64,000 nucleotides of DNA from an uncultured bacterium (GTDB lineage: Bacteria; Patescibacteriota; Minisyncoccia; UBA6257; UBA9933), in the NCBI GenBank assembly GCA_913009635.1, contig CAJVXI010000001.1, positions 2,915 to 66,914 on the forward strand. Direction: 5' to 3'. Positions 11,407 to 61,330 of the stretch are shown here, in pieces. Each line of letters starts with the position of its first letter. Within the stretch, counting starts at the first letter, position 1. Position numbers and translations under genes: made by a program. Under the pieces are notes generated by a model. That model saw only the letters and a program-made list of their open reading frames with translations, searched no databases and had not been told where the DNA came from.

Positions 11407-11504
11407 AGCTATAAATGTTATAATTGTTCTATCGTTTCGTTTGTTGTAATTGTTTCAACTAAAGCAATTATAACAGTTAGAACATTATAACATTATAACA
11501 TTTC

Positions 11505-11909: not shown

Positions 11910-12112
11910 TGTCAATATACGAATGCGTACTAATGATACGAATAAATAAATACTAATATATGATGCCAATATACTAATGGATACTAATGATACGAATAAA
12001 TACTAATTCAATTCGTATGTATTAGTATAATTAGTATGAATTCGTATATTAGCATTTCACATAAGTATAATTAGCATGAATTAGTATATTAGTATTTCAT
12101 TAAGCGAAGCGT
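11904..12112. repeat. Repeat family C copy, long form. It contains the HIT stop codon and abuts the rpsU ATG.
   Basis: The element runs 'gcgtaatgycaatatacgaatgcgtactaatgatacg ... cattaagcgaagcg' and has imperfect TIRs. Confidence 0.85.
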
Positions 12113-12322: not shown

Positions 12323-12410
12323 TTAGCCACTAGCGACTAGCCACTAGTGAATTAGTGTTGAAATAAAATTTCCTAGTGGCTAAACCCTAGTGGCTAGTGG
12401 TTTTATTTAT
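12323..12410. repeat. Repeat family B copy ('ccactagtgattag...ccctagtggctaaaccctagtggct' palindrome).
   Basis: Other copies are at 20461-20561, 47566-47656, 51937-52022 and 55596-55686. Confidence 0.85.
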
Positions 12411-13446: not shown

Positions 13447-13576
13447 GCACCAAATTCTAATTCGCCAGCTGGCGAACTAAACACGAGTTTCGATAATTGG
13501 AATTTCGGTCATTGAAATTTACCCCTCAGTCCTGAAATTCTCGGGGTTGAAGGATTTGTGATTTGGAATTTGTTAT
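13412..13576. repeat. Repeat family E copy ('caccaagcaccaaataacaaataa ... cgccagctggcg ... acccctcagtcctgaaattctcggggt').
   Basis: Its reverse complement is at 26602-26778. A 5' fragment forms the end of the ORF at 1196-1247. Confidence 0.85.
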
Positions 13577-14815: not shown

Positions 14816-14940
14816 AGTAATCATTAATTAGCGAATAATTGTCTGTCCGCAATGCTTAAGCATAGCGATAGCAGGCGGACGAATATGGCGAATAATAAAT
14901 TTGTATATTCGCAGGAATTCGTCAATTCGCGAATACTTTT
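14816..14940. repeat. Repeat family D copy ('gagtaatcaytaattagcgaata...attcgcgaacact') that fills the ftsA-ftsZ gap.
   Basis: Other copies are at 16117-16213, 26215-26295 and 44752-44807. Confidence 0.85.
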
Positions 14941-16116
14941 ATGAAGCATAAAGAAGAAAAATATACTCTTGCCAGAATTAAAGTTATAGGCGTTGGCGGA
15001 GGAGGAAGCAACGCGATTACAAGAATGAATAAAGATTTTCCGCGCGCAGTTGATTTGATTGCGATTAATACGGACGTTCAAGATCTTAATTATTGTAACG
15101 CTAAAAAGAAAATTCATATTGGTCAAGAAGTTACTAAAGGATTAGGAGCAGGAATGAATCCTGATTTAGGGCGTCAGTCAGCCGAAGAGAATCGCTCTGA
15201 AATTGCGGATATACTCAAAGGAGCGGATATGGTTTTTATAACAGCGGGTTTTGGTGGCGGCACTGGAACTGGAGCTTCGCCGATAATTGCCGAAATAGCC
15301 AGAGATTTAGGAATTCTTACAATAGCTGTTGTTACTAAGCCGTTTAGTTTTGAGGGCTCTCAGCGAAATCAAATTGCTCAAGAAGGCATAATTAAGCTTA
15401 AAGACAAAGTTGATACTTTAATTGTTATTCCGAATGATAGAATTTTTTCTTTAATTGATAAAGATACTTCATTAATTAAAGCTTTTGAAAAGATTGATGA
15501 AGTTTTAAATAATTCAGTTAAGGGAATTACAGAATTAATAATGAATCCCGGCATTGTTAACGTAGATTTCGCCGATGTTAAAACAGTGATGGAAGAAGGC
15601 GGTTCCGCGGTTATCGGAATTGGTTTAGCTAGTGGTCAGGAAAGAGCCCTAAGCGCGGCCAATCAAGCTATTAATTCGCCTCTTTTAGAAACTTCTATTG
15701 ACGGCGCCAAAGGAGTTCTTTTTAGTATTTCCGGGCGTCGTGATTTAAAAATGAACGAGGTTAATGAAATTGCCAAATTAATTTCTGAGAACGTTGATTC
15801 AACTGCTAAAATAATTTTTGGAACATATAATGATAGAAGGATTAGAAAGGGGCAAATTAAAGTGACTCTTATTGCCACTGGATTTGATAATATTTTAAAA
15901 AATAATGATATCACCGGCTTATTTAGTTCAGTTAGCTTAGAAGAAGATTCTTCTCCGGCTACTGCTTCTTCTTTGTTGTCAGATAGCAAAAAAGAAGATA
16001 AAAATAAAGAGGAAAAAAGTAAAGAAATAAAAAAGAATAGTAAAATTGAACCAAAAAAGAAAACAGACGATATTTGGGACATACCGACGTTTTTGAGGAG
16101 AAGGAGAAAAAAATAA
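14941..16116 (+). CDS. ftsZ: Cell division GTPase FtsZ.
   Basis: '[10 protein letters not shown]' and '[10 protein letters not shown]' are tubulin signature motifs. Confidence 0.95.
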
Positions 16117-16213
16117 GAGTAATCGCTAATTAGCGAATACTTGCGAATATACAAATCGTGAATAAATTATTCGCTATATTCGCAGGAATTTGCTAATTCG
16201 TGAACACTCCTTT
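16117..16213. repeat. Repeat family D copy that fills the ftsZ-nrdJ gap.
   Basis: It starts at the ftsZ stop and ends 'ttcgtgaacactcctttATG'. Confidence 0.85.
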
Positions 16214-19210: not shown

Positions 19211-20476
19211 ATGAGTAAGAAATATTCTATAATTTTATTATTATTGATTATTATTCTGGCAATAGGAGCCGGGATTTTTATTTACCCTTTATTCAATAAA
19301 TTAAACGTTCGTCCTTGGCGTTTAGGTTTGGATTTGGTTGGTGGCAGCCATTTAATATACGAAGTGGATATGTCTCAAGTTGATAAAAAAGACAAGGATT
19401 CAGTAATGAACGGCTTAAGGGAAGTAATTGAAAAAAGAGTTAATTTATTCGGCGTTAGCGAACCTAGAGTAACTGCCAGTAAGATAGGAGAATCTTTTCG
19501 TTTAATCGTTGAATTAGCTGGCATTAAGGATATTGGAGAAGCCGTAAAAGAGATTGGCTCAACTCCACTCTTGGATTTTCGAGAAGTTATATATACACAA
19601 ATAGAAGAAAAGACGAATGATAATACAAAAGAAAGCATTCAATTCATTCCGACAAATTTAACTGGTCGTTATATGGAAGGGGCTCAACTTGATTTTAATC
19701 AAACAACAGGTGCTGCTCAAATAAATATTCAATTTAATAGCGAAGGAGCAAAAATTTTTGAAGAGTTAACTGAAAAAAATGTTGGGCAGCCATTGGCAAT
19801 TTTTCTTGATAATCAACTTATTGAAATGCCTATGGTTAGAGAAAAAATTACTGGCGGTCGGGCGCAAATTACCGGGAAATTCACGATTGATGAAGCTAAA
19901 AAAATGGTGGAGCGTTTCAATGCAGGCGCTTTACCAGCTCCAATTAATTTAATTAGTCAGTATACTATTGGAGCTAGTTTAGGTGCTAGGTCTTTGGATA
20001 GCGCAATCAAGGCAGGGGCATGGGGAATACTTCTGATAATGATTTTTATGGTTCTTTATTATAGGAGTTTTGGAGTTTTTGCTTCGCTAGCGCTTTTAAT
20101 TTACGTTATTTTGACTTTATCTGTATTTAAGAGCCTATCGATTACCATGACTTTAGCTGGTATTGCAGGATTTATTCTTTCTATTGGAATGGCAGTTGAT
20201 GCTAATATTTTAATTTTTGAAAGAACTAAAGAAGAAATCAAAAAAGGCCTTTCACGAATTTCAGCTGTTGAGGAAGGATTCAAGCGGGCTTGGTCATCAA
20301 TTCGTGATTCCAATATTGCTACTATTATTAGTTCAGTTATTTTGTATTATTCTACCTCAAGTTTTGTAAAGGGATTTGCTTTAGCGCTTTTAATCGGAGT
20401 TTTAGTTTCAATGTTTAGCGCAATAACAGTGACAAGAACAATGTTGAGAGTGTTCACGCGAGCCACTAGCGACTAG
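19211..20476 (+). CDS. secD: Protein translocase subunit SecD. Its last codons and stop lie in the repeat family B copy.
   Basis: N-terminal TM and periplasmic domain 'LGLDLVGGSHLIYEV', followed by a C-terminal 6-TM bundle. Confidence 0.9.
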   Translation: MSKKYSIILLLLIIILAIGAGIFIYPLFNKLNVRPWRLGLDLVGGSHLIYEVDMSQVDKKDKDSVMNGLREVIEKRVNLFGVSEPRVTASKIGESFRLIVELAGIKDIGEAVKEIGSTPLLDFREVIYTQIEEKTNDNTKESIQFIPTNLTGRYMEGAQLDFNQTTGAAQINIQFNSEGAKIFEELTEKNVGQPLAIFLDNQLIEMPMVREKITGGRAQITGKFTIDEAKKMVERFNAGALPAPINLISQYTIGASLGARSLDSAIKAGAWGILLIMIFMVLYYRSFGVFASLALLIYVILTLSVFKSLSITMTLAGIAGFILSIGMAVDANILIFERTKEEIKKGLSRISAVEEGFKRAWSSIRDSNIATIISSVILYYSTSSFVKGFALALLIGVLVSMFSAITVTRTMLRVFTRATSD

Positions 20477-20561
20477 CCACTAGTGATTAGTGTTGACAAC
20501 AAAGTTTTTTAGTGACTAACTCCCTAGTGGCTAGTGGCTAATTTACTAGTGGCTTAAATTT
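20461..20561. repeat. Repeat family B copy between secD and secF.
   Basis: The sequence runs 'agccactagcgactagccactagtgattag...ccctagtggctagtggctaatttactagtggc'. Confidence 0.85.
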
Positions 20562-22532: not shown

Positions 22533-22630
22533 AGAATTGTTAAATTGTTATATTGTTATTTATTTAATAAAAAAAAACTCGTAAAATTCATTTCAACAAT
22601 TTAATAATTTAACAATTTAGCAATAAATTT

Positions 22631-26214: not shown

Positions 26215-26295
26215 GAGTAATCACTAATTAGCGAATACTCGCGAATATAGCGAATTCGCCATATTCGCAAAGATTTGTAATTCGCGAACACTCCC
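26215..26295. repeat. Repeat family D copy.
   Basis: It fills the gap to cutA. The antisense ORF 26067-26297 is partly its translation. Confidence 0.85.
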
Positions 26296-26601: not shown

Positions 26602-26778
26602 AAATTTCAAATAACAAATTCCAAATCTCAAATCCTTCAACCCCGAGAATTTCAGGACCGAGGGGTAAATTCCAATGACCGAAACGTGTTTGAAATTTTA
26701 AATTTAGAATTTGGTGCTTATTTGTTATTTGGTGCTTGGAATTTGGTGCTTTTTAATACTTAGATTTAGCAATATATT
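26602..26778. repeat. Repeat family E copy, reverse orientation.
   Basis: It is the reverse complement of 13412-13576. Confidence 0.85.
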
Positions 26779-30501: not shown

Positions 30502-30564
30502 ATTGGCATAATTATACCATAAATTTAGTTGTTTACAATTAACGGGAAAATGGCTATATTATAA

Positions 30565-30675
30565 AGCGTGATATCAATATACGAATGCGTACTAATGATA
30601 CGAATAAATACTAATTCGTATCCATTAGTATAATTAGCATGAATTAGTATATTAGCATTACATTAAGCGAAACGT
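30565..30675. repeat. Repeat family C copy, short form.
   Basis: It ends 'cattaagcgaaacgtATG' at efp. Confidence 0.8.
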
Positions 30676-31248: not shown

Positions 31249-31470
31249 AAAATCTTTTCTTGCCAGCCAAGCTAAGTAAAAATCTTTTCTCGTTCGTAGT
31301 GCTACACCAAATGAAAATCTTACTTCGCTCATAACTAGAAAATACCACCCTGCTACGCGGGTACCCGGTATTTTCTCTATTCGCTCAGAGATTTTCTATT
31401 CGGCTCCGCAATACTCTCTGTGAAAAGATTTTTGCTTAGTTAGTTAACGGGCTGGCTACAAAAAGATTTT
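31249..31470. repeat. MITE-like or structured element, second copy, with termini 'AAAATCTTTTCTTGCCAGCC ... GGCTGGCTACAAAAAGATTTT'.
   Basis: The termini match 8545-8792. It has the nested inverted repeat 'gctaagtaaaaatcttttc ... gaaaagatttttgcttagtt'. Confidence 0.6.
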
Positions 31471-31502
31471 CTACTAGTCTTAATTGAGAAAAATAAGAAA
31501 AT

Positions 31503-31530
31503 AAAAAAGCCGGCTTTAGAGGTAGCCGGC
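31503..31530 (-). terminator. Rho-independent terminator-like hairpin on the minus strand (gccggc..gccggc followed by a T-run on the - strand).
   Basis: On the + strand it reads 'aaaaaagccggctttagaggtagccggc'. Confidence 0.4.
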
Positions 31531-31800
31531 AACCTTTAATTTGTGGTGCTTACGCATTTCTTCTTCGTTCGAAGCACCAATTAACGAAGAATATCTCTGT
31601 CTAGTATACTCGCACGGCCGAGAAACGCCATTGTGCGATAATCTATATCTTTTGTATTGGATAACTCGCTGAGCGATTATTCAAGCAATTTCAGTGTACT
31701 ATTAATAGTATACACATATTAAAACATTTGTCAATAGTGCGCCAAAACATCTCATTTTTAGCCCAAATAAATCCCACACTTTTCATTCGAGAGGTGCGGG

Positions 31801-31840
31801 ATAAACGGCTCACACGGCGTGTGAGCCGTTTATTTTCTAA
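31801..31840 (+). terminator. Perfect hairpin 'aaacggctcacacggcgtgtgagccgttt' followed by a T-run. An identical hairpin is at 42080-42112.
   Basis: A 12-bp GC-containing stem is followed by 'attttc'. No + strand CDS lies upstream within 550 bp. Confidence 0.55.
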
Positions 31841-31980
31841 ATTTTCAATTTATCATAATTTAACGTAATCAAATTACGTTAAATTATTTAATACAAAGCG
31901 TCATTTGAATGACACTTTATTTATTGGTTAAGTTTGATAATTTGAGAAAAAAAATTTCTGATGATATAGTTTAGTTAATT

Positions 31981-33219
31981 ATGAAAGCAAAAGATAAAAA
32001 AATCGTATTCGTAGCGCTATCAGGCGGCGTTGATTCAAGTGTTGCGGCTTTATTATTAAAAAAACAGGGCTATTATGTAGTTGGTGTTTTTATGCGTTGT
32101 TGGAGAGATGAAAGCCCCGACGCTTCGGTCGGGGCAAGCTGTATGGAAAAAGATGCTGAAGATGCCAGAAAGGTGGCGGAAAAATTGGAAATTCCTTTTT
32201 ATGTTTGGGATTTTGAAAAAGAGTATAAGAAAAGAGTGGTTGATTATATGGTTAATGGTTATAAAAAAGGCATCACTCCTAATCCTGATGTAATGTGCAA
32301 TAAAGAAATCAAGTTTGGTTTGTTTTTGGAAAAAGCGCTGAAGATGGGAGCGGATTATGTGGCAACGGGACACTATGTCCGGCTTTACAGCGTTGTAAAT
32401 GTTCAAAATGTTGTAGATGTTGTAAATGAAAAACAATTACAACAAGCGAAGCGATCCAACAAGCGAAGCGATACAGCATTACAACTTTTTGAGGCTAAGG
32501 ACAAGAATAAAGACCAATCTTATTTTCTTTGGACCTTAACGCAAAAACAATTACAGCATTGCCTTTTTCCTATTGGTGATTATTTGAAGTCCGAAGTTCG
32601 GAAAATCGCTAAAAAAGCTGATTTATTAACAGCTGAGAAAAAGGATTCTCAGGGTATTTGTTTTTTGGGCAAAGTAACACTTGATGATTTTTTGGGTAAA
32701 TATATTCCTAAAAAGAAAGGGGATATTATTAATATTTCAGGGGAAAAAATCGGCGAACACAAAGGCGCTTATTTTTATACTATTGGCCAGCGGCGCGGAC
32801 TTGGAATTGGCGGCCGCCCAATAAAATTGGGCGAGTCTCGTCCCAAAGGGACGGGAGGCGCACCTTATTATGTCGTTGAAAAAGACGTTAAGAAAAACAT
32901 TATTAAAGTTGCCGAAGGAAAAAGCGAAGCGCTTTATAAAAAAGAAATTGAATTATCGGATGTTAATTTTATCAATCCTATAATTCATAATTCAAAATTC
33001 ATAATTCCAGTGTTGGCTCGGGTGCGTTATAGGCAGCCTTTAATAAAAGCCAAATTAGTAATTAGTAATCAGGAATTAGTAAATAGGAAAAACAAAAAGT
33101 CCCTAGTTACTAGTTACTATTTACTATTTACTGAGCCCATTAAATTCATCGCTCCTGGCCAGTCAGCAGTGTTTTATAGTTCAAAAGGTGAAATGTTGGG
33201 CGGAGGTGTGATAAAATAA
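31981..33219 (+). CDS. mnmA: tRNA-specific 2-thiouridylase MnmA with small repeat insertions.
   Basis: PP-loop 'VALSGGVDSSV' and the region 'CNKEIKFGLFLEKA'. In-frame repeats are at 32108-32135, 32441-32473 and 33095-33135. Confidence 0.85.
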   Translation: MKAKDKKIVFVALSGGVDSSVAALLLKKQGYYVVGVFMRCWRDESPDASVGASCMEKDAEDARKVAEKLEIPFYVWDFEKEYKKRVVDYMVNGYKKGITPNPDVMCNKEIKFGLFLEKALKMGADYVATGHYVRLYSVVNVQNVVDVVNEKQLQQAKRSNKRSDTALQLFEAKDKNKDQSYFLWTLTQKQLQHCLFPIGDYLKSEVRKIAKKADLLTAEKKDSQGICFLGKVTLDDFLGKYIPKKKGDIINISGEKIGEHKGAYFYTIGQRRGLGIGGRPIKLGESRPKGTGGAPYYVVEKDVKKNIIKVAEGKSEALYKKEIELSDVNFINPIIHNSKFIIPVLARVRYRQPLIKAKLVISNQELVNRKNKKSLVTSYYLLFTEPIKFIAPGQSAVFYSSKGEMLGGGVIK

Positions 33220-33223: not shown

Positions 33224-33760
33224 ATGATTATTATTTTTACGGGAAACGGAAAAGGTAAAACAACTGCAGCATTGGGGCAGGCGATTCGTGCTTTGGGGCA
33301 GGAGAAGAAAGTTTTGATTATTCAGTTTATAAAAAATATTTCTAGCGGCGAACATAAATTTTTTTCCTCTTTCCTCTTTCCTCTTTCCTCTTTTAGAATC
33401 ATTAAAGGAGGTAAAGGGTTTGTAGGAATTTTAGGCGACAAGCTTCCATTTTCCGAACATAAAAAAGCCGCGCAAAAAATATTAAAATTAGCAGCCCAAA
33501 AAATTAATCCGCCAGCTGGCGGAAAAAAATACGATTTGATTGTTTTAGACGAAATAAACGTGGCTGTAAATTTGAAATTGTTAAGCGCTAAAAAAGTATT
33601 GGATATTTTAAAAAATTTTCCTAAAGACAAAGACATAATTTTAACTGGCCGTAGCGCGCCAAAAAGTTTTATAAAAATAGCTGATTTAGTGACTGAAATG
33701 AAAGAAGTTAAGCACCCGTTTAAAAAAGGCGTGAGGGCAAAAAAAGGAATTGAATTTTAA
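33224..33760 (+). CDS. Cob(I)yrinic acid a,c-diamide / cob(I)alamin adenosyltransferase (CobA/CobO/BtuR family) with an in-frame (cctcttt)n insertion.
   Basis: P-loop 'IIFTGNGKGKTTAALG' and 'LIVLDEI'. The insertion at 33359-33394 'tcctctttcctctttcctctttcctctttt' encodes 'FSSFLFPLSSF'. Confidence 0.7.
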   Translation: MIIIFTGNGKGKTTAALGQAIRALGQEKKVLIIQFIKNISSGEHKFFSSFLFPLSSFRIIKGGKGFVGILGDKLPFSEHKKAAQKILKLAAQKINPPAGGKKYDLIVLDEINVAVNLKLLSAKKVLDILKNFPKDKDIILTGRSAPKSFIKIADLVTEMKEVKHPFKKGVRAKKGIEF

Positions 33761-40171: not shown

Positions 40172-40204
40172 GCGGCTATTGACTCTTTATTTTTATGTTA
40201 TAAT

Positions 40205-40357
40205 TATAGCGAGTTCCAGTTAGTGATTTCTCGGATCAAATCGGATTTTCAGGGAGAACAACAGCGCTTTGGCTCTTGGGCTAAAGTTGAGTTCACCCAC
40301 TTGGCGAATAGCCGAGAGAATCCAACGGCTGGAACTCATGAAAAAGCAGTGGAATGA
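40205..40357 (+). ncRNA. Candidate structured RNA or leader. It has the long-range pairing 'gagttccag...ctggaactc', nested 'ttctcgg/ccgagaa' pairing and an intrinsic terminator hairpin 'aaaaagcagtggaatgactgcttttt'.
   Basis: The pairing was read by eye. It lies in a 330-bp gap upstream of rpmB. No family was recognised. Confidence 0.3.
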
Positions 40358-40503
40358 CTGCTTTTTCGTTTCTAAACTTACCGAAGGATTGATACTTCGG
40401 AAATGTGCTCAGTATCAATCTCCTCGAGTCTGAGTCTCGGAGTCGAAGATCTGAGCTTACCGAAGGATTGATATTTTATAAATTATTTGTAATACTTATT
40501 GTT

Positions 40504-44337: not shown

Positions 44338-44751
44338 ATGCCAACATTAAATCAATTAATTAAAAATAAAAGAAAGAAAGCCAAAAAGAAATCCAAATCA
44401 CCTGCGATGGGTTTTTATTTTAATACTATACAAAATAAACCTGTTTATTCTAATTCGCCTTTTAAAAGAGGTGTTTGCCTGAAGGTGTTTACAACAACGC
44501 CAAAAAAACCGAATTCCGCTTTGCGAAAAGTTGCAAGAGTGCGGTTAACCAACGGAATGGAAGTAACGGCTTATATTCCAGGCCAAGGACATCAACTTCA
44601 GGAACATTCAGTAGTAATGCTTAGGGGAGGGCGAGTTAAGGATTTGCCTGGAGTGAGATACCATATTGTTAGAGGAGTTTTGGATACAACCGGCGTAGAG
44701 GGTAGAAAGCAAGAAAGGAGCAAATATGGAACAAAGCGTTCCAAAGAGTAA
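44338..44751 (+). CDS. rpsL: 30S ribosomal protein S12. The ORF opens at 44311 and the canonical MPTLNQL start is at 44338.
   Basis: '[14 protein letters not shown]' and '[16 protein letters not shown]'. Confidence 0.95.
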
Positions 44752-44807
44752 TCACTAATTAGCGAATACTTGCGAATATAGCGAATTCGCCATATTCGCG
44801 AACACTC
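44752..44807. repeat. Repeat family D copy, short form, that fills the rpsL-rpsG gap.
   Basis: 'gagtaatcactaattagcgaatacttgcgaatatagcgaattcgccatattcgcgaacactcATG'. Confidence 0.85.
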
Positions 44808-45281: not shown

Positions 45282-45423
45282 GCTATAAATTTACAATTTT
45301 CAATTATCAATTTCTATTAAATTTACAATGACTTAATTTTCAATGACTAAACTTTTAGTCGTGTTTGCAAAATTATTGAATTAAAGATTCAATGAAAATT
45401 AAAAATTAGAAATTAAAAATTCT

Positions 45424-47565: not shown

Positions 47566-47656
47566 AATAGCCACTAGCCACTAGTGATTAGGGTTTAGGG
47601 TTTTAATTTAAGTATTTTAACCCTAGTGGCTAAACCCTAGTGGCTAATCACTAAAA
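47566..47656. repeat. Repeat family B copy.
   Basis: It fills the gap from the fusA stop to the ATG at 47657. Confidence 0.85.
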
Positions 47657-47860: not shown

Positions 47861-47939
47861 AATTAAAAATTATGAAACATGAAGTATGAAGCGTGAAACA
47901 TAAAGTTTCAAGTTTCAAGTTTCAAGTTTCAATAGAAAT

Positions 47940-49500: not shown

Positions 49501-49946
49501 ATTAAGCAAAATCCTCCTAAATGGTGGATTTTGTTTATATGAATAATTTATTTAGTTAGAAATAATACACATCCGCTCTGCGGCGCAAGTTATCGCTTAT
49601 AGTAATTTCTACGGCAATCTAAATACTCAGCGGGAATTTCTAACGGGATTTATTGACAAAAAATTTGATATTTGTTAACTTTAACTAAAGTTGAACAATG
49701 ATTAGATTATCATTAAATTTAGAATAATATAGGAAATATACGACAGATTTAGCCAAAATTTTTTAAAAAATAGCTAGGCTATGTCTGGCTGTTTTTTTGT
49801 TGTTACGTCCAATATGAGGATTTTAAAAGCGTTTTTCTAAAAGAAAAACATAGAGTTCTTTATTGGGTATGAGATTTAAGCATTAATCAAGAAAAGGAAT
49901 TCAAATAAAATTTAAGTATTTTCTATTTGAAATTTTTCTACTGGGT

Positions 49947-50570
49947 ATGGCGTTTATATTAGGTAAAAAACTGAATATGTCTCAGATTTGGAAAGACGAT
50001 AAAGTGATTCCTGTTACGGCTGTTAAGGCCGGACCAATAACTATAACTCAAATTAGAATAGAAGAAAAAGATGGTTATGAAGCAATGCAAGTTGGATTTG
50101 ACGCGACAAAAAAGAAATTAAATAAGCCGATGAAAGGACATTTAAAAGATTTAGGGAATTTCAGATATCTAAAAGAATTTAAAAGTGAACAGGAGAAAAA
50201 GTATAAAGTAGGTGATATTCTGGATGTTAGTCAGTTTCAAGAAGGTGATAAAGTAAAAGTTAGCGGTTTAAATAAAGGCAGAGGATTTCAAGGGGTAGTC
50301 AAGCGACATGGTTTTCATGGTGGACCCAAGAGTCATGGCCAAAAAGATCGTTTGCGGGCGCCGGGCTCAATTGGTTCTACTGATCCGCAAAGAGTAATAC
50401 CAGGTAAGAAAATGGCCGGTCATATGGGTCAAGAAAGAATAGCGATAAAAAATTTGAAAATAGTTAATATTGATAAAGAGAACAACATTTTAATGATTAA
50501 AGGCGCGGTGCCTGGAATGAGAGGGACACTTTTAGAAATTCAAAATGTAAAAATTAAAAATTCAAAATGA
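49947..50570 (+). CDS. rplC: 50S ribosomal protein L3.
   Basis: The L3 pattern is present ('GKKLNMSQIW', 'KGRGFQGVVKRHGF'). Confidence 0.95.
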   Translation: MAFILGKKLNMSQIWKDDKVIPVTAVKAGPITITQIRIEEKDGYEAMQVGFDATKKKLNKPMKGHLKDLGNFRYLKEFKSEQEKKYKVGDILDVSQFQEGDKVKVSGLNKGRGFQGVVKRHGFHGGPKSHGQKDRLRAPGSIGSTDPQRVIPGKKMAGHMGQERIAIKNLKIVNIDKENNILMIKGAVPGMRGTLLEIQNVKIKNSK

Positions 50571-50663
50571 CAAATCAAAATGTTAAAATTGTTTCCGTTC
50601 GTTTTAATCCATTTTGAAATTTTACACTGTCATTTTCCATTTTGATATTTACATTTTACATTT
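50571..50663. repeat. Repeat family A copy that fills the rplC-rplD gap.
   Basis: '...aatgttaaaattgtttccgttcgttttaat...cactgtcattttccattttgatatttacattttacatttATG'. Confidence 0.8.
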
Positions 50664-51332: not shown

Positions 51333-51340
51333 ACCAAACC

Positions 51341-51458
51341 TTTACCCGCCTAAATTTTTATACCAAATATGAAATATTACAAAAATAGAGCCGAAGGCGT
51401 CGACTTCGTCTCCTAATATGCTAAAAGTAAAAGTTTTTGACAAAAATTTAGGCGGGTG
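51341..51458 (+). other. Structured intergenic element. The long-range stem 'tttacccgcctaaattttt / aaaaatttaggcgggtg' encloses the GC hairpin 'gccgaaggcgtcgacttcgtc'.
   Basis: Read by eye. It lies between rplD and rplW, where these genes usually abut. Confidence 0.4.
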
Positions 51459-51516
51459 CTCAAATTTCTAGATAAATTTGACTTCGCTCCACTCGTAAAA
51501 TTTATAAAAATTTGAC

Positions 51517-51936: not shown

Positions 51937-52022
51937 CTAGCCACTAGCCACTAGCCACTAGTGATTAGGGTTTAGGGTTTTAATTTTTAACCCTAGTGGC
52001 TAAACCCTAGTGGCTAATCACT
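51937..52022. repeat. Repeat family B copy that fills the rplW-rplB gap.
   Basis: 'ctagccactagccactagccactagtgattagggtttagggtttta...ctaatcactATG'. Confidence 0.85.
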
Positions 52023-52844: not shown

Positions 52845-52934
52845 TATCAGCAAAAATCCGCATAAATCAGCGTAAGGACATCATAAACGCTGATTAATGC
52901 TGATACGGCTGATTTATGCTGATAAATTATAAAA

Positions 52935-53866: not shown

Positions 53867-53952
53867 AATAACTAACGACTAACGACTAACAACTAACGAC
53901 TAATAATTTTTTAAGTCGTAGGTTATAAGTCGTGAGTCATAAGTCAAATAAA
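53867..53952. repeat. Palindromic tandem repeat: (taacgac)n followed by its inverse (gtcgt..taagtc)n.
   Basis: 'aactaacgactaacgactaacaactaacgactaa...ttaagtcgtaggttataagtcgtgagtcataagtc'. Confidence 0.7.
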
Positions 53953-54636
53953 TTGGCGCAGAAAATTAAACCAAATTCATTTAGATTAGGGATAATTAGA
54001 GATTGGGATGCGCGTTGGTTCCCTAAAAAAACTAATTATAAATCTTCTTTAGAAGAGGATGTTTTGTTAAGAGAAATAATTCGTGAAAAAATCGGTAAAG
54101 CTGGTATTGATAGAATTATTATAGAGAGAACTGGAAATAGTTGTAAAATTTTTATTAAAGCTGCCAGACCTGGATTAATTATCGGACGGGGGGGAAAGGG
54201 AATTGAAGAATTGACTAAATTATTAGAAAGCAAATTAAGTGAATTAAGAAAGAATAGAAAATTTACTGAATTGATTTCTTTGAGTTTAAATATAGAGGAG
54301 TTAAAACGTTCAGAGATTTCAGCTTCAGTGGTTGCGCAAAATATTGCCTGGGATTTAGAAAAAAGATTGCCATTTCGTCGGATGATTAAAAGATCTTTAG
54401 ATCAAATTATTCAAAATAAAGACGTTAAAGGCGCGAAGATTGAAGTTTCTGGCAGATTGAATGGAGCAGAAATTGCTCGTAGAGAACATTTAAATAAAGG
54501 AGAAATGCCTCTTCAGAATCTTAGGGCCAATATTGACTATGGAGAAGCTACTGCTTTTACTACTTTCGGAACTGTCGGAGTGAAAATATGGATATATAAA
54601 GGAGAAGTGTTCGCCGATAAAATCGGCTCAAATTAA
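53953..54636 (+). CDS. rpsC: 30S ribosomal protein S3. The likely start is TTG at 53953, and the ATG at 53932 lies in the palindromic repeat.
   Basis: '(L)AQKIKPNSFRLGIIRDWDARWF' aligns with the E. coli '[23 protein letters not shown]'. Confidence 0.9.
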   Translation: MAQKIKPNSFRLGIIRDWDARWFPKKTNYKSSLEEDVLLREIIREKIGKAGIDRIIIERTGNSCKIFIKAARPGLIIGRGGKGIEELTKLLESKLSELRKNRKFTELISLSLNIEELKRSEISASVVAQNIAWDLEKRLPFRRMIKRSLDQIIQNKDVKGAKIEVSGRLNGAEIARREHLNKGEMPLQNLRANIDYGEATAFTTFGTVGVKIWIYKGEVFADKIGSN

Positions 54637-54746
54637 AAAATCAAAAATCAAAATAACAAATCAAAATTTCAAAATGGTTTAAATTAAAAATTTAACATTT
54701 TACACTGTCATTTTCCATTTTGATATTTATATTTTACATTTTTAAC
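54637..54746. repeat. Repeat family A copy that fills the rpsC-rplP gap.
   Basis: About 95% identical to 59230-59339. Confidence 0.85.
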
Positions 54747-55157
54747 ATGTTAATTCCAAAAAAAGTAAAACATCGCAAATGGCATAAGGGACGTTCTAGG
54801 AAACGGCAAGTTGAAACTAGAGGGATTACTCTAAGTTTTGGCGCTTTTGGATTACAAGCATTGGAAAGCGCGTGGATTAATTCAAGACAAATAGAGGCCT
54901 CTAGAAGAACGATTACTCACTTTACTAAAAGAGGAGGAAAAGTTTGGATAAGAATTTTCCCCGATAAACCAGTAACTAAGAAACCACCAGAAGTAACTTT
55001 AGGCGGCGGTAAAGGGGCAGTAGATCATTATGTGTTCCCAGTGAAACCCGGCAGGATATTATTTGAAATTGATGGAGTAGATGAAGAGATGGCAAAGGAG
55101 GCATTACGGAGAGCTGGACATAAATTGCCAATTAAAACTAGAGTCATATCTAAATAG
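54747..55157 (+). CDS. rplP: 50S ribosomal protein L16. The ORF track opens at 54720 inside the repeat.
   Basis: '[16 protein letters not shown]'. Confidence 0.95.
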
Positions 55158-55170
55158 TTATTAAGTTATT

Positions 55171-55368
55171 ATGAAACAGAAAGACAATCAACAATTTAAA
55201 AACAAACCTTTGCCGGAGCTTAGGGAAAATTTAGCTGATTATCATGAAAAATTGAGGAAATTGAAATTTGACTTAGCTGCGGGCAAGGTGAAAAATATTA
55301 GAGAGATTAAAGCGATTAAAAAGTCAATCGCCAGAGTTTTAACTGCAACAAGTAATAACAATCAATAA
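55171..55368 (+). CDS. rpmC: 50S ribosomal protein L29.
   Basis: Size, position and the 'ELRE...LRKLKFDLA' pattern. Confidence 0.85.
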   Translation: MKQKDNQQFKNKPLPELRENLADYHEKLRKLKFDLAAGKVKNIREIKAIKKSIARVLTATSNNNQ

Positions 55369-55369
55369 T

Positions 55370-55606
55370 ATGAAACGTAAATTACAAGGAATAATAGTTT
55401 CAGATAAAATGAATAAAACTAGAGTGGTAAGCACTACTCGGCTTAAAAAACATTCAAGATATTTGAGGCGTTATAAAGTAACCCAAAAATTTAAGGCGCA
55501 TGATGAAAATAACGAATATAAAATTGGTGATAAAGTTATTATTGAAGAAACGAAACCAATAAGTAAAGATAAACGGTGGATTATAAAAAGCAAAATTAGC
55601 CACTAG
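55370..55606 (+). CDS. rpsQ: 30S ribosomal protein S17. Its last codons and stop lie within the repeat family B copy.
   Basis: 'KLQGIIVSDKMNKTRVV'. Confidence 0.9.
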   Translation: MKRKLQGIIVSDKMNKTRVVSTTRLKKHSRYLRRYKVTQKFKAHDENNEYKIGDKVIIEETKPISKDKRWIIKSKISH

Positions 55607-55686
55607 CCACTAGTGATTAGGGTTTAGGGTTTTAATTTAAGTATTTTAACTCTAGTGGCTAAACCCTAGTGGCTAATCACTAATAT
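55596..55686. repeat. Repeat family B copy that fills the rpsQ-rplN gap.
   Basis: 'ttagccactagccactagtgattagggtttagggtttta...ggctaatcactaatatATG'. Confidence 0.85.
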
Positions 55687-56052
55687 ATGATTCAAGAACG
55701 TTCAATATTAAAAGTAGCTGATAACAGTGGCGCTAAAGTCATACGTGTTTTTAGGATTTTAGGCGGCACCAGACGACGTTATTCAAGAATAGGCGATCTT
55801 GTTGTTGCCTCAGTAAGAGAAGTTGAACCAAGAAAAGCAGTAAAAAAGAAAGATATAGTTAGGGCAGTAATCGTAAGGCAACGCCAACCATTTCGTCGTT
55901 CTGATGGTTCTTATATTAGATTTGATGAAAATGCAGCAGTTTTAATTGAAAAGAAAGAACCGCGAGGAACAAGGATTTTTGGACCAATACCAAGAGAATT
56001 AAAAGAAAAAGGTTTTGAAAAAATAGTAACTATGGCGGAGGAAATAGTGTAA
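55687..56052 (+). CDS. rplN: 50S ribosomal protein L14.
   Basis: '[17 protein letters not shown]'. Confidence 0.95.
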
Positions 56053-56158
56053 GCGTAATGCCAATATACAAATGCGTACTAATGATACGAATAAATACTA
56101 ATTCGTATCCATTAGTATAATTAACATGAATTAGTATATTAGCATTTCATTTATTAGT
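56053..56158. repeat. Repeat family C copy, short form, that fills the rplN-rplX gap.
   Basis: 'gcgtaatgccaatatacaaatgcgtactaatgatacg...'. Confidence 0.85.
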
Positions 56159-56467
56159 ATGCGAATCAAAAAAGGAGATATGGTAAAAATAATTACCGGT
56201 AAAGACAAGGGTAAGGCTGGTAAAATTATAAAGGTTTTTCCTGATAAGGGTTCAATTTTGATTGATGGATTAAATATTTACAAAAAACATGCTAAACCGA
56301 AAAAACAAGGAGAAAAAGGGCAGACGGTTTTGGTGCCGAGACCGATTAATGCTTCAAATACAATGATTGTATGCTCGGCTTGTAATAAAAATACTAAAAT
56401 CGGATACCGGTTAGAGAATAAAAATAAAATTAGATATTGTAAAAAATGTTCTGCCGCTCTACGTTAA
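56159..56467 (+). CDS. rplX: 50S ribosomal protein L24 with a C-terminal Cys4 ribbon.
   Basis: The KOW motif 'IKKGDMVKIITGKDKGKAGKI' and 'CSACN...CKKC'. Confidence 0.9.
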   Translation: MRIKKGDMVKIITGKDKGKAGKIIKVFPDKGSILIDGLNIYKKHAKPKKQGEKGQTVLVPRPINASNTMIVCSACNKNTKIGYRLENKNKIRYCKKCSAALR

Positions 56468-56518
56468 TAAAACTAACGTTTAATGTGAGAGAAATTTTCC
56501 ACTTATTTATACAAAATT

Positions 56519-57070
56519 ATGGCAAGTTTAAAAGCAAAATATAATACGGAAATAGTGAAAAAAATGAAAAAATCTTTTGGCTATAAAAATGATTTAGCCG
56601 TACCTAAATTAAGTAAGGTGGTTATTAATGTTGGCGTGGGAAGGTTAAGCCAGCAGCCAAATTTTGAAGAGAAAATTTTGCCGGAAATAAGTAAAGAATT
56701 ATCATTTATTACAGGACAGAAACCTTTATTTACAGCTGCTAAAAAATCAATTGCTGGATTTAAAACGCGAGCTGGTCAAACTATTGGGCTAAAGACAACA
56801 CTAAGGCGCCAAAGAATGTATGATTTTTTAGAAAGATTGATTAATATTACTATGCCGCGAGTCAGAGATTTTAGGGGCATTAATCTGAAAAGTGTTGATA
56901 AAAAAGGAAATTTAACTATTGGGATGAAAGATCAATTGGCATTTCCGGAAATTAATCTTGAATTCTCAAAAATTGACTTTGGCTTGGAAATCACTATTGT
57001 AAGTAATGCCGCAAAAAGAGAAGAGGCAATAGAATTGTATAGATTATTGGGAATACCATTAAAGAAATAA
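56519..57070 (+). CDS. rplE: 50S ribosomal protein L5.
   Basis: The L5 pattern is present. Confidence 0.95.
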
Positions 57071-57074
57071 AATT

Positions 57075-57260
57075 ATGGCAAAAAAATCAGTAATAGCTCG
57101 AGCAAAAAAGAAGCCAAAATTTTCTACAAGAGACGTGAAAAGATGTTTTCGTTGCGGTCGAAAACGAGGTTATATGCGCGATTTTGGTCTTTGTCGCATT
57201 TGTTTCAGGGAAATGGCGAGTAGAGGTGAAATACCCGGAGTGAAAAAAGCAAGCTGGTAA
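57075..57260 (+). CDS. rpsZ: 30S ribosomal protein S14, type Z (zinc-binding).
   Basis: '[23 protein letters not shown]'. Confidence 0.9.
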
Positions 57261-57265
57261 AAATT

Positions 57266-57649
57266 ATGTACATCAATTTATTAACAAACATAAAAAATGC
57301 TCAAGCGGTGAAAAAAGAGAATATCAAAGTGCCTTACTTAAAAATGGACGAGGGCGTTCTTAGTGTTTTAAAGAAAAATAAATATATAGAAACTTATACA
57401 AAAAAAGGAAGAGGCATAAAGAGATTTCTTGATATTAAATTAGATTATCTTGATAATAAAGAAGGAGTAATTAATGGCGTTAAATTTATTAGCAAACCAT
57501 CTCGACGGATTTATATTGGTTATCATGAATTAAGGCCAATAAAACATGGTTATGGATTGTTAGTTATATCTACGTCCAAAGGTATTATGAGCGGTAAGGA
57601 AGCAAAAAAGTCGAAATTGGGCGGAGAGATATTATTTGAAATCTGGTAA
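57266..57649 (+). CDS. rpsH: 30S ribosomal protein S8.
   Basis: Position in the operon and S8 pattern. Confidence 0.95.
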   Translation: MYINLLTNIKNAQAVKKENIKVPYLKMDEGVLSVLKKNKYIETYTKKGRGIKRFLDIKLDYLDNKEGVINGVKFISKPSRRIYIGYHELRPIKHGYGLLVISTSKGIMSGKEAKKSKLGGEILFEIW

Positions 57650-57651
57650 TT

Positions 57652-58197
57652 ATGAGTAAAATAGGTAAAAAACCAATAGAGATTCTAGAAGGAATTGAAG
57701 TCAAAATTAATGGCGGCGAATTAGAATTGAAAGGAAAAAAAGGAGAAATGTCAGTAAAAATTCTTCCGTATGTTAAAATAGAAATTAAAGACAACCAAAT
57801 CCTTTTTGATATTCAAGTCAATTCTAAACAAGCGCGGGCTAATTGGGGGACAATACGGTCATTAGTTCAAAACGCTGTTTTGGGATTAAATGAAGGGTTT
57901 ACAAAGATTTTAGAAATTAATGGTGTTGGCTATCGTGCGGAAATGCAAGGAGATGACTTAATTCTTAATATTGGCTTAAGCCACTCCGTAAAAGTAAGCT
58001 CACCTGAAAATATTAAAATTTCCGTTGAAAAAAACATTATCAAGGTTTTTGGGGTTGATAAAAGTATAGTAGGAGAAATAGCGGCTAAAATTAGAGCTTG
58101 CAAGAAACCAGAGCCGTATAAAGGAAAAGGAATTAGGTATCAAGGAGAAGTGGTGCAAAGAAAGGCAGGGAAGAAGGTAGCTGGAACCGCAACATAG
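57652..58197 (+). CDS. rplF: 50S ribosomal protein L6.
   Basis: 'SKIGKKPIEI'. Confidence 0.95.
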   Translation: MSKIGKKPIEILEGIEVKINGGELELKGKKGEMSVKILPYVKIEIKDNQILFDIQVNSKQARANWGTIRSLVQNAVLGLNEGFTKILEINGVGYRAEMQGDDLILNIGLSHSVKVSSPENIKISVEKNIIKVFGVDKSIVGEIAAKIRACKKPEPYKGKGIRYQGEVVQRKAGKKVAGTAT

Positions 58198-58399
58198 CGT
58201 AATGCCAATATACAAATGCGTACTAATGATACGAATAAATAAATACTAATATATGATGCCAATATACTAATGGATACTAATGATACGAATAAATACTAAT
58301 TCGTATATATTAGTATAATTAGCATGAATTCGTATATTAGCATTTCACATAAGTATAATTAGCATGAATTAGTATATTAGTATTTCATTAAGCGAAGCG
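58198..58399. repeat. Repeat family C copy, long form, that fills the rplF-rplR gap.
   Basis: Nearly identical to 11904-12112 and 24571-24774. Confidence 0.85.
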
Positions 58400-58723
58400 A
58401 TGAATTCAAGAAAAACATTAAATAAAATAATACAGAGAAGAAAGATGAGGACTCGAAGTAAAATACACGGTACTGCTAGTAGGCCGCGATTTTCGATTTT
58501 TAGAAGCAACCAAACTGTTTATGTTCAATTAATTGATGACAAAGAAGGTAAAACTTTAGTCAGCGCGTCAACAAAAGAGTCAAAGAATTTAGGAGAATTA
58601 ATTGGTAAAAAGGCGTTTGAAAAAGGTATTAAAAAAGTGGTTTTTGATAGAGGTTCATACAAGTTTCATGGTCGAATAAAAAAAATAGCCGAAGAAGCGC
58701 GAAAAGCAGGACTACAAATATAA
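58400..58723 (+). CDS. rplR: 50S ribosomal protein L18.
   Basis: '[20 protein letters not shown]'. Confidence 0.9.
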
Positions 58724-58779
58724 TTTTTTGAATTTAAAATAATTCGAGGTGTTTTTGAGATAATTTAAGAAATAAATTT

Positions 58780-59229
58780 ATGAGAGAATTAAAACCTAAA
58801 AGTGAATTTAAGGATAAGGTATTAGATTTGCGTCGAGTGACGCGTGTTGTTGCTGGCGGTAAGCGTTTTCGTTTTAGAGCAACAGTGATAATTGGAAATG
58901 AAAAAGGTAAGGTTGGAGTAGGTGTTGCTAAGGGGCTAGATGTAGCTCAAGCAGTTAATAAAGCTAAAACTAATGCTAAGAAAAAAATAATTATTATTAA
59001 TCTTAAAAATAAAACTATTGCGCATGAGGTTGAAGCAAAGTATAGCGCTGCTAAAGTAATGATTAAGCCGGCTAAAATTGGACACGGTCTTAAGGCAGGA
59101 GGCGCTGCAAGAGTAGTATTGCTTTTAGCCGGCGTTAGAGACGCTACTGCAAAGTGTTTAGGAGGAACTAAAAATAAATTAACTAATGCTTTGGCGACGA
59201 TAGAAGCGTTGAAAAAATTAAAAAATTAA
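58780..59229 (+). CDS. rpsE: 30S ribosomal protein S5.
   Basis: 'RVTRVVAGGKRFRFRA'. Confidence 0.95.
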   Translation: MRELKPKSEFKDKVLDLRRVTRVVAGGKRFRFRATVIIGNEKGKVGVGVAKGLDVAQAVNKAKTNAKKKIIIINLKNKTIAHEVEAKYSAAKVMIKPAKIGHGLKAGGAARVVLLLAGVRDATAKCLGGTKNKLTNALATIEALKKLKN

Positions 59230-59339
59230 AAATCAAAAATCAAAATAACAAATCAAAATTTCAAAATGGTTTAAATTAAAAATTTTAACATTTTACACTG
59301 TCATTTTATATTTTGATATTTACATTTTACATTTTTAAC
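59230..59339. repeat. Repeat family A copy that fills the rpsE-rplO gap, where rpmD (L30) normally sits.
   Basis: It ends 'ttacatttttaacATG'. Confidence 0.85.
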
Positions 59340-59753
59340 ATGCAATTACATCAATTAAAACCAAAAACTAAATCAAAAAATAAAAAACGCATAGGTAGAG
59401 GCGGAAAGCGCGGTACTTATTCTGGTCGTGGGATAAAAGGTCAGAAGTCCAGGGCCGGTCACAAAATTAGGCCAGCTGAGCGAGATTTGATTCAGCGTTT
59501 GCCGAAACTGAGGGGCATTAAGAATAAACCGCTTAAATCAAAGCCTGTAGTGGTTAATTTTAGCGATTTGGAAAAGAAAATTAAAGGTAATATAATTAAC
59601 AGAGACGTTTTATTAAAAGCTGGATTAATCAGAAAGTCAGATAAGCGAGTAAAAATTCTTGGTCCAAAGAGCGGAAAGATAAAACGGACTTTTCAGATAG
59701 AGGGGCTAGAGGTGTCAAAAAAACTCAAACATGAACAATCTAATTTTTCTTAA
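59340..59753 (+). CDS. rplO: 50S ribosomal protein L15.
   Basis: 'MQLHQLKPK...RIGRGGKRGTYSGRG'. Confidence 0.9.
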   Translation: MQLHQLKPKTKSKNKKRIGRGGKRGTYSGRGIKGQKSRAGHKIRPAERDLIQRLPKLRGIKNKPLKSKPVVVNFSDLEKKIKGNIINRDVLLKAGLIRKSDKRVKILGPKSGKIKRTFQIEGLEVSKKLKHEQSNFS

Positions 59754-59952
59754 AAATTTTGCTACTTACTCTGAAGCAGAACTTGCAAAAAACCTTTTAG
59801 AAAACAATGATATTAAATCAATGCTTCAAAAGGGGGATATTGCAGTTGCGGGAGAATTTAGTGGATATGCTGGTGACGCGAATTTATTTGTTTTAGAAAA
59901 AGATCACAATAAAGCAAAAGAAATTTTAGGAATTAAAGATAATAGGGATTAA
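59731..59952 (+). CDS. DUF2007-like small protein inserted between rplO and secY. It overlaps the rplO 3' end by 23 nt.
   Basis: 'YSEAELAKNLLENNDIKSMLQKGDIAVAGEFSGYAGDANLFVLEKDHNKAKEIL' matches the DUF2007 pattern. Confidence 0.4.
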   Translation: MNNLIFLKNFATYSEAELAKNLLENNDIKSMLQKGDIAVAGEFSGYAGDANLFVLEKDHNKAKEILGIKDNRD

Positions 59953-61222: not shown

Positions 61223-61262
61223 TAAAAAATTTCTAATTTCTAATTTCTAATTTCTAATCAAT
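61223..61262. repeat. (ttctaat)n tandem repeat.
   Basis: 'aaaaatttctaatttctaatttctaatttctaatc'. Confidence 0.8.
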
Positions 61263-61330
61263 TTTTAATGTTCTAATGTTTAAAAATTAAAGAATTATAA
61301 ATTTATTAAAAATTAATAATTAAAAATTCT

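Follow-up and report, generated by a model that had tools for sequence, protein, structure and literature searches.

The subject of this report is a set of palindromic repeat elements that occupy many gene junctions of the S10-spc ribosomal protein operon in a 64,000-nucleotide (nt) stretch of contig CAJVXI010000001.1 (assembly GCA_913009635.1, contig positions 2,915 to 66,914). The whole stretch is referred to as the window. The host is an ultra-small Wolfebacteria-like member of the candidate phyla radiation (CPR; Patescibacteria) and carries the NCBI label 'Candidatus Wolfebacteria'. The window is 33% GC and is transcribed nearly entirely from the + strand. From rpsJ (49165) to rplO (59340), each gene is a full-length NCBIfam equivalog and the genes display the universal S10-spc order. 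In a GTDB genome scan the species-representative genomes nearest to the window are Paceibacteria and Harrisonbacteria, with an L6 identity of 56–63%. Closer relatives were obtained by protein search and include the loci L185, L187 and L188 (L numbers are our handles for the loci compared).

Inverted repeats of 80–200 nt are found in 11 of the 18 junctions between rplC and rplO. The summed gaps of this region amount to 1362 nt in the window vs a median of about 200 nt in the operons of 80 relatives. Direct-repeat analysis and alignments separate the window's elements into at least six families plus singletons, where the first-pass annotation of this DNA had counted three families. The families are recognised by their repeated units: A-rich/T-rich in family A, CTAGCCA in family B, ATACNAAT in family C, TAGCGAATA in family D, AATTTCT in family E and CCAAGCA in family F. 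The elements in the operon are listed below; z is the folding score relative to shuffled sequences, and limits in brackets are those of the first-pass annotation.

50559–50663 (50571–50663), no strand assigned: family A, rplC–rplD gap, inverted with respect to the remaining copies of family A
51333–51516, no strand assigned: singleton long-range inverted repeat, rplD–rplW gap, ACCCGCCTAAATTTTT...AAAAATTTAGGCGGGT
51937–52022, + strand: family B, rplW–rplB gap, CTAGCCA heptamers, z −4.4
52845–52934, no strand assigned: singleton palindrome, rplB–rpsS gap, ATCAGC units, z −5.3
53867–53952, no strand assigned: singleton palindrome, rplV–rpsC gap, TAACGAC heptamers, z −4.6
54630–54746 (54637–54746), + strand: family A, rpsC–rplP gap, weak RNA hairpin, z −0.8
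55596–55686, + strand: family B, rpsQ–rplN gap, provides the last codons of rpsQ and its TAG stop at 55604–55606
56053–56158, + strand: family C single copy, rplN–rplX gap, with a 13-codon remnant of a GxxExxY open reading frame (ORF) from ATG 56082 to TAA 56120
58198–58399, + strand: family C double copy (L1 L2 loop R2 R1), rplF–rplR gap, a 1-nt site in L188
59222–59339 (59230–59339), + strand: family A, rpsE–rplO gap, a 3-nt site in L187

Similar repeats are not confined to the operon. About 30 of the 43 same-strand gaps of 40–260 nt in the window carry inverted repeats. When each gap was given a hairpin score that allows Watson-Crick pairs only and was compared with 20 shuffles of its own sequence, 30 of the 43 exceeded all 20 shuffles, with about 2 expected by chance, and 20 exceeded the 99th percentile of the shuffles. 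Coding-region controls do not show this. The filling of S10-spc junctions by palindromes, as first described, is thus confirmed by the gene identities and by the shuffle statistics, and the coordinates hold. The pilB–pilC gap (family A) and the gaps from secD to secF and from fusA to the downstream ORF (both family B) are also filled by the families originally named. The rpsL–rpsG, ftsA–ftsZ and ftsZ–nrdJ gaps had been assigned to the same three families but instead carry family D.

The arms of the elements consist of tandem arrays with a period of 7 to 10 nt (Tandem Repeats Finder), and the GC content of the elements is 15–43%. Elements are present in both orientations, and flipped copies are found inside the window. 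The double family C copies are 95–97% identical across three junctions. The median distance from the upstream stop codon to the arm is about 1 nt, and that from the arm to the next start codon is about 10 nt. An exact fit from stop codon to ATG had been proposed; this is so for the 3′ side of family C, where the ATG is within 0–1 nt of the element in four of the five window copies, but in general the fit is approximate. In three cases the stop codon of the upstream gene lies inside the element (rpsQ, 55604–55606; secD, 20474–20476; a HIT gene, 11907–11909). Family B, family C and singleton elements fold far above their shuffles, with z about −4 to −10. Family A is a palindrome in sequence, but as RNA it does not fold into a stable hairpin (z −0.6 to −1.5).

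The operon with its repeats is found at 99.9–100% identity, and with no indels, in at least five independent assemblies: a 95.6-kb contig of the European Nucleotide Archive (ENA), NCBI GCA_011039985.1, and three marine metagenome contigs. Because the same repeats recur in these assemblies, the operon is not an assembly artefact. A separate observation concerns a 2209-nt ENA contig (ERZ909564, L006), in which rplW is fused to rplN across two family B copies with loss of rplB to rpsQ. This join reflects a collapse of the assembly or else a genuine deletion by recombination. For many close relatives only contigs of about 1 kb are known, probably from the same cause.

The orthologous operons of relatives, proposed as a check in the first-pass annotation, include empty sites. 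The gap between L6 and L18 is 1 nt in L188 (83% L6 identity) vs 202 nt in the window. In L187 (74%) the S5–L15 gap is 3 nt and the SecY–Adk gap is 2 nt, vs 110 nt and 108 nt in the window. The termini of the flanking proteins are conserved across filled and empty sites. Since the sites in relatives are empty, at 1–3 nt, and the protein ends are intact, the gap palindromes are insertions. The reverse is seen in L185 (75%), which displays a different heptamer hairpin at SecY–Adk and another at S8–L6, a junction that is empty (2 nt) in the window.

Occupancy is completely different from one relative to the next. Among 75 scored operon loci, the window included, 41 have no more than one expanded junction, and in 8, again with the window included, at least half of the junctions are expanded. 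The heavily filled loci are scattered over Moraniibacteriota, metagenome-assembled genomes labelled Saccharibacteria, Falkowbacteria and Jorgensenbacteria, and their gaps show the same kind of tandem-unit hairpins, at times with similar units. Two Moraniibacteriota loci (L018 and L023) also carry GC-richer palindromes of 160–230 nt, TGTCATTCC(C/G)...GGGAATGACA, beside heptamer hairpins at ribosomal protein junctions.

A full-length form with an ORF is found for family E. The four family E features of the window are as follows.

1248–1727, + strand: full-length cassette, arms 1248–1289 and 1682–1723 around the ORF 1288–1686
7006–7041, + strand: solo left arm, AATTTCT x3.7
45282–45423, no strand assigned: ORF-less copy, rpsG–fusA gap, cassette-end matches of 73% and 88%
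61223–61330, + strand: ORF-less copy, secY–adk gap, left and right ends of the cassette, a 2-nt site in L187

The two arms of the cassette are 42 nt each, inverted and 86% complementary. The ORF between them matches PF05635 (E = 4e-15) and TIGR02436 (E = 3.9e-21), the protein of 23S rRNA intervening sequences (IVP), a four-helix bundle. IVP homologues with 81–86% identity and the same arms are situated between other housekeeping genes in other genomes, e.g. between dprA and topA, and between a pilin and a peptidase gene. A search of the fetched loci for further IVP genes with tblastn and a narrow hidden Markov model gave only the expected copies. The two ORF-less copies consist of the left 66 nt of the cassette, which include the first codons of the ORF, and the right 43 nt.

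Family C shows a comparable arrangement with a different gene. Its 21-nt core is present in 97 metagenome stretches, mostly as complete hairpins in intergenic gaps, and its ends read GATACCAATATAC...GTATATTGGTATC. In two of the loci (L093 and L126) the arms are about 410–425 nt apart and surround a GxxExxY protein of 131–134 amino acids (aa), with the ORF in either orientation. This protein corresponds to TIGR04256 and PF13366, belongs to the PD-(D/E)XK nuclease superfamily and is predicted to be nuclease-like. In all, five other CPR genomes (L093, L126, L199, L200 and L202) have GxxExxY ORFs placed between family C inverted ends, and in the last three, which are assigned to Minisyncoccota, Pacebacteria and Wolfebacteria, the GxxExxY genes sit between housekeeping genes. 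The conserved core, TACTA-ATG-ATA-CRA-ATA-AAT-A, holds the start of the GxxExxY ORF (MIQINTN), and the family C copies of the window keep this start as a 13-codon remnant (e.g. 56082–56120). The ATACNAAT units recur about every 9–10 nt and are conserved in sequence, with the central base free. The Pacebacteria genome (L200, GCA_028712565.1) displays a GxxExxY cassette (1501–1905) and a PF05635 cassette (3121 onward) on either side of dnaX.

Because both ends and the first codons are retained, the short copies are regarded as deletion derivatives resembling miniature inverted-repeat transposable elements (MITEs). A parent–derivative relation is demonstrated for families E and C. GC-rich hairpins are nested in family C copies of other genomes; therefore the elements insert into one another. 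In L112, L137, L147 and L152 small GC-rich hairpins (e.g. CCTGCCTACCGGCAGGCAGG) are seen at nearly the same site of the family C right arm. When all the sequence retrieved, about 2 Mb, was searched without bias for small ORFs lying between inverted repeats, the search gave six with PDDEXK_3 and five with PF05635 cargo, in several arm families; the remainder were host genes between adjacent elements and one ORF with a PaaX/Cas2-like domain.

The cassettes are more similar between hosts than the hosts are. The IVP of the window and that of L189 share 81% identity, and the cassette DNA is 79–80% identical over about 480 nt, while the housekeeping proteins Pth, LepB and HisRS are 47–53% identical between the same two genomes. 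This difference, about 80% for the cassettes and about 50% for the housekeeping proteins, indicates horizontal spread. Hosts of family C, where they could be compared, have a median protein identity of 51% with the window, and their L6 proteins are 48–49% identical. A phage vector was considered and rejected, as the cores of families B and C were not found in viral contigs.

The start regions of the host have a bearing on how such insertions may be tolerated. Over 76 genes, the 20 nt upstream of the start are A/T-rich and depleted in G, with a T at position −1 in 49. GGAG or GAGG is found upstream of just 2 of the 76, less than random expectation, and the host is therefore not reliant on Shine-Dalgarno pairing.

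These results are best explained if the gap-filling palindromes are selfish inverted-repeat DNA elements that have spread horizontally among Patescibacteria, a reading to which we assign a probability of roughly 0.72. The full-length form is a cassette of about 0.5 kb, in which inverted arms of tandem 7–10 nt units surround a single gene of 125–135 aa, the cargo being the PF05635 four-helix bundle in family E and the PF13366/TIGR04256 GxxExxY protein in family C. The operon copies of 80–200 nt would be internal-deletion derivatives in which both arms are retained together with the opening codons of the gene that was lost. Insertion is into stop-to-start spacers of 1–10 nt and is seen in both orientations and with nesting, and a stop codon is sometimes donated to the upstream gene. 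A protein encoded by the cassettes may mobilise the elements in trans, the best candidate being the nuclease-fold GxxExxY protein, and copies would persist only where nothing is broken. In the S10-spc operon, initiation without a Shine-Dalgarno sequence would mean that no ribosome-binding site is displaced, and elements that abut start codons are presumably tolerated because the host does not depend on such sites. The elements would be co-transcribed, and if RNase III cuts their long stems, by analogy with rRNA intervening sequences, this would be a side effect and not a function under selection. The first-pass annotation was incomplete in that it missed the origin from ORF-bearing cassettes, the extent over the whole window and the recurrence across CPR phyla.

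Several points weigh against selfish elements of this kind. The scanned proteins of the 64-kb window include no transposase, no GxxExxY protein and no RAYT (REP-associated tyrosine transposase, REP being repetitive extragenic palindromic sequence). There is no demonstrated mobility function for PF05635 or PF13366. Families A, B and D are without an identified ORF-bearing parent, the metagenome scan having been made with the family C core. No consistent target-site duplication is seen in the comparisons of filled with empty sites or in 33 aligned family C copies, where the flanks are palindromic extensions. Untargeted filling of half of the 1–10 nt spacers would imply a heavy lethal load, and some targeting may be involved. 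Finally, the hairpins are strong (z −4 to −10) and lie in the operon with the highest expression, and they may have been co-opted all the same.

With regard to targeting, the first-pass annotation had suggested strongly targeted insertion at stop/start junctions. Insertion at these junctions is borne out by the empty sites of 1–3 nt in relatives, but strong targeting is not. The residual spacers are 0–16 nt and vary from copy to copy, and these variable spacers, the nesting and probable in-frame copies in mnmA argue against strict targeting. With the other spacers at 0–12 nt, selection alone would leave junction insertions only. The occupancy of targets as small as 1–10 nt nevertheless argues for some insertion preference.

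A broader proposal can be put forward tentatively; we consider it possible but doubtful. The elements may make up a single mobile-element class, hitherto unrecognised and characteristic of CPR bacteria, in which inverted arrays of short units are recognised and moved by the cargo proteins, GxxExxY acting as the nuclease and PF05635 as a nucleic-acid-binding partner or alternative. Insertion would be steered to exposed sites (stop/start spacers, hairpin apices and rRNA tetraloops), and the classic rRNA intervening sequences would be the rRNA-resident members of the class. If this is true, a role is found for two large families of proteins whose function is unknown.

The principal rival explanation is that the palindromes are co-opted inter-cistronic RNA elements, acting as RNase III processing sites, 3′-end stabilisers or start-codon insulators that split the operon mRNA into stable units. 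The RNase III sites of phage T7 and the REPs of E. coli are models for hairpins in processing and stabilisation. The folding scores of family B, family C and the singletons suit such a role, as do stems of 20–45 bp, which are appropriate for RNase III, the ends near start codons and a host that does not use Shine-Dalgarno sequences; RNase III also cleaves rRNA intervening sequences at their stems (PMC4990558). The three family A copies of the operon, however, are no more stable than shuffles, and both orientations occur: relative to the flanking genes, family C is co-oriented in 8 cases and anti-oriented in 10. Mismatches in the family C stems fall on the N of the ATACNAAT units, where the base is free; on the strand of the element itself A·C clearly outnumbers G·T, whichever way the gene is oriented. 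Over all window hairpins the sense strand shows 55 A·C vs 32 G·T mismatches. The mismatches follow the element, not the direction of transcription, and G·T is not in excess; tolerance of G·U pairs in the transcript is thus not indicated. Occupancy is not kept even at 75–83% L6 identity, gaps of 0–12 nt suffice in most CPR relatives, and a search of Rfam gave nothing at gathering thresholds and only noise at E ≤ 1. A search for an RNase III signature motif gave no match in the sequence examined, which is so small a part of the genome that the result is uninformative. Thus there is no evidence for a role in processing, as a hairpin site or as a re-initiation signal, which the first-pass annotation had offered as the alternative to targeting, and we judge co-option unlikely. 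Two related candidates were set aside. Terminator-like sites number 13 vs 8.1 ± 2.7 expected, but only one of these overlaps an element (minus strand 55616–55600, family B), so that intrinsic terminators were rejected; promoter-like sites are not enriched. The notion that the arms are selected to supply stop codons in three frames (period 7 = 1 mod 3) was also dropped: the number of frames closed within the first 30 nt is just slightly above shuffles and alike in every orientation, and 11–14 of 30 elements close all three frames.

The palindromes might also have grown in place by replication slippage and intra-strand template switching and never have been mobile. Tandem arms with a period of 7 to 10 nt would be expected of such a process, the unit number varies by copy (CTAGCCA x3 vs x2), unrelated CPR genomes contain simple units of a similar sort (e.g. 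AATTTCT and TTGTTAAA), and heptamer arrays are found inside genes too. Growth in place nevertheless leaves unexplained the complex copies that are 94–97% identical at unlinked junctions and the family C and E ends held in common with ORF-bearing cassettes in hosts whose proteins are about 50% identical. It is quite improbable as the origin of the elements, and slippage may still reshape arms that have been inserted. Less probable still is that the elements serve the host as DNA, in the form of arrays of sites bound by proteins (for DNA uptake by this competent organism, nucleoid organisation, or replication and segregation). The spacing of ATACNAAT at about 9–10 nt with a free central base, and the ComEC and type IV pilus genes in the window, agree with that suggestion; against it, there are many unrelated units and not one over-represented motif, the closest relatives are without the elements, and the conserved family C core is explained as the 5′ coding sequence of the parental ORF. 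Known kinds of array, i.e. TIGR-Tas guides (tandem interspaced guide RNAs), integron attC sites or CRISPR-like repeats, can practically be discounted. TIGR stem-loop arrays do exist in CPR bacteria (bioRxiv 10.64898/2026.09.09.750476) and the alternation of genes and palindromes resembles a cassette array. By the criteria of the same paper, a TIGR-Tas array was rejected on architecture, because the stems are near-continuous to the apex, with no space for two unpaired spacers, and there is no Nop-domain protein among the window proteins scanned. An integron array was likewise rejected: the genes are core genes in the universal S10-spc order and no integrase is present among the same proteins, attC core sites not having been searched for. 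The sole Rfam match to CRISPR is noise (E = 0.56).

Selfish inverted-repeat elements therefore remain the preferred reading, and they can be compared with several known systems. The classic 23S rRNA intervening sequence (IVS) is a stem-bounded PF05635 ORF that is excised by RNase III (PMC4990558), and insertions in the rRNA genes of CPR bacteria have been reported to contain PF05635 ORFs (PMC11270868). The IVSs of Leptospira, Coxiella, Salmonella and others share with the window elements a long stem formed by terminal complementarity, an optional PF05635 ORF, ORF-less short forms, and a sporadic, horizontally acquired distribution. RNase III cuts the IVS stem (PMC4990558) and may act on the window elements likewise. 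IVSs reside in rRNA helices, and the window elements between, possibly also in frame within, protein-coding genes; there is no rRNA or tRNA gene in the 64-kb window. The elements further differ in the tandem 7–10 nt units of their arms, in their dozens of copies and several families per 64 kb, and in a second cargo, GxxExxY.

Bacterial MITEs, such as the Correia/NEMIS elements of Neisseria, RUP and BOX of pneumococcus, ERIC (enterobacterial repetitive intergenic consensus) and Nezha, are likewise about 100–200 nt with inverted ends and no ORF, are found as many co-transcribed intergenic copies and arise by internal deletion from an ORF-bearing element. Correia elements are cut by RNase III. 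The short copies of the window agree with MITEs in that they are short, ORF-less and multicopy with terminal inverted repeats, and in families E and C their ends are shared with an ORF-bearing parent. The parents carry PF05635 or PF13366 and not a recognised transposase, no target-site duplication was found, the ends are made of short tandem units and the sharing is at the level of phyla. The REP sequences, with their composite forms BIME (bacterial interspersed mosaic element) and REPIN, are also high-copy extragenic palindromes inside operons, with singlets and hairpin doublets. Their mobilisation in trans is attributed to one domesticated gene flanked by repeats, the RAYT, a feature that may be likened to the window elements; no RAYT gene is present among the scanned proteins of this 64 kb of the genome. 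REPs are 20–40 nt, GC-rich and carry a GTAG/CTAC motif, whereas the window elements are AT-rich, 80–200 nt and of several unrelated families.

The Rickettsia palindromic elements (RPE) are palindromes of 100–150 bp in the reduced, AT-rich genome of a host-dependent bacterium and are situated both between genes and in frame inside genes, with no transposition machinery known. The RPEs have no known ORF-bearing parent, the in-frame copies of the window are few and putative (mnmA), and the comparison is one of description. The free-standing homing endonuclease genes of T4-like phages are again small nuclease-family genes placed precisely between conserved genes, patchy in distribution and more mobile than their neighbours. 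They are without inverted-repeat arms and without dozens of ORF-less derivatives, and the nuclease activity of GxxExxY is here predicted only. No description of such elements between protein-coding genes was found in the literature collection searched, and beyond that collection their novelty is unproven.

Several consequences follow for the study of CPR bacteria. A minimal genome can carry mobile elements in over half of the junctions of its most conserved operon, and the filled junctions bear on whether these bacteria couple the translation of adjacent cistrons. Two abundant families of small proteins of unknown function, PF05635 ('IVS protein', Avd relatives) and PF13366/GxxExxY, are tied to inverted-repeat cassettes that move between distant hosts. 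This link gives a testable model for the origin and mobility of rRNA IVSs, an open question since the early 1990s. At a practical level, the repeats break and mis-join CPR metagenome assemblies (e.g. L006) and mislead gene calling, in which they create spurious start sites and spurious extensions at the C terminus.

The remaining elements of the window are as follows.

3438–3572, + strand: family A, pilB–pilC gap
5326–5420, no strand assigned: singleton heptamer-armed hairpin, TAGAATA / CTAAATT, with a similar element in the S8–L6 gap of L185
9948–10077, + strand: family A, lepB–hisS gap
11407–11504, no strand assigned: singleton hairpin, ATTATAAC octamers
11903–12112, + strand: family C double copy, HIT gene–rpsU gap, with the HIT stop (11907–11909) inside the element
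12323–12410, + strand: family B, rpsU–yqeY gap
14816–14940, no strand assigned: family D, ftsA–ftsZ gap, TAGCGAATA units
16110–16218, no strand assigned: family D, ftsZ–nrdJ gap, z −9.9
20461–20561, + strand: family B, secD–secF gap, with the secD stop (20474–20476) inside the element
22533–22630, no strand assigned: singleton hairpin, ATTGTTAT octamers, with similar units in the Moraniibacteriota locus L023
24571–24774, + strand: family C double copy
26215–26295, no strand assigned: family D
30564–30675, + strand: family C single copy, directly 5′ of efp
33053–33132, + strand: heptamer-armed hairpin in frame inside mnmA, matching an insertion of about 12 aa vs solved MnmA structures
44744–44807, no strand assigned: family D, rpsL–rpsG gap
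47566–47656, + strand: family B, fusA to a 67-aa ORF
47861–47939, no strand assigned: singleton hairpin 5′ of tuf, ATGAAAC / AAGTTTC heptamers, z −9.1

In mnmA (31981–33219) there are two repeat or hairpin segments, 32386–32470 and 33053–33132, which are translated in frame. They fall where insertions of about 27 and about 12 aa are seen vs solved MnmA structures (PDB homologues) and apparently are in-frame copies of elements. The first segment contains two copies of AAGCGAAGC, a motif of family C right ends. This 9-mer is found seven times on the + strand of the whole window and not at all on the − strand, and in three family C copies it is directly 5′ of the ATG. GCGAAGC, which is contained within it, is a very stable mini-hairpin.

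Family F (CCAAGCA / CCAAAT units) is found at 1197–1247, 13410–13591 and 26602–26778 and overlaps the 3′ ends of two ORFs, a Wzy_C gene and ybeY. YbeY has 185 aa while its profile has 129 positions, and the extra length suggests translation of sequence that derives from the repeats. Perfect heptamer arrays are also present in coding sequence, at 33363–33393 (TTTCCTC x4.4, in a cobA/btuR-like gene) and at 9180–9218 (ATGAATT x5.6, in pth). The pth array is not supported as an in-frame insertion, as the length of the segment is normal vs one homologue.

Some other features of the operon and of the window may be mentioned. The start of rpsC is probably the TTG at 53953. The gap between rpsJ and rplC (49501–49946) is 446 nt vs a median of 182 nt in relatives; it contains the sole good terminator-like site of the operon (49765–49797) and has no Rfam match. 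The rpmD (L30) gene is not in the operon. Between rplO and secY a 73-aa DUF2007-like ORF (59731–59952) overlaps the end of rplO by 23 nt. Non-coding stretches at 31249–31980 (732 nt), 8545–8792 (248 nt) and 40172–40503 (332 nt) give no Rfam match at the gathering score. The first two of these have long palindromes in common, AAAATCTTTT...CCAGCC / GGCTGG...AAAGATTTT, which enclose 150–250 nt.

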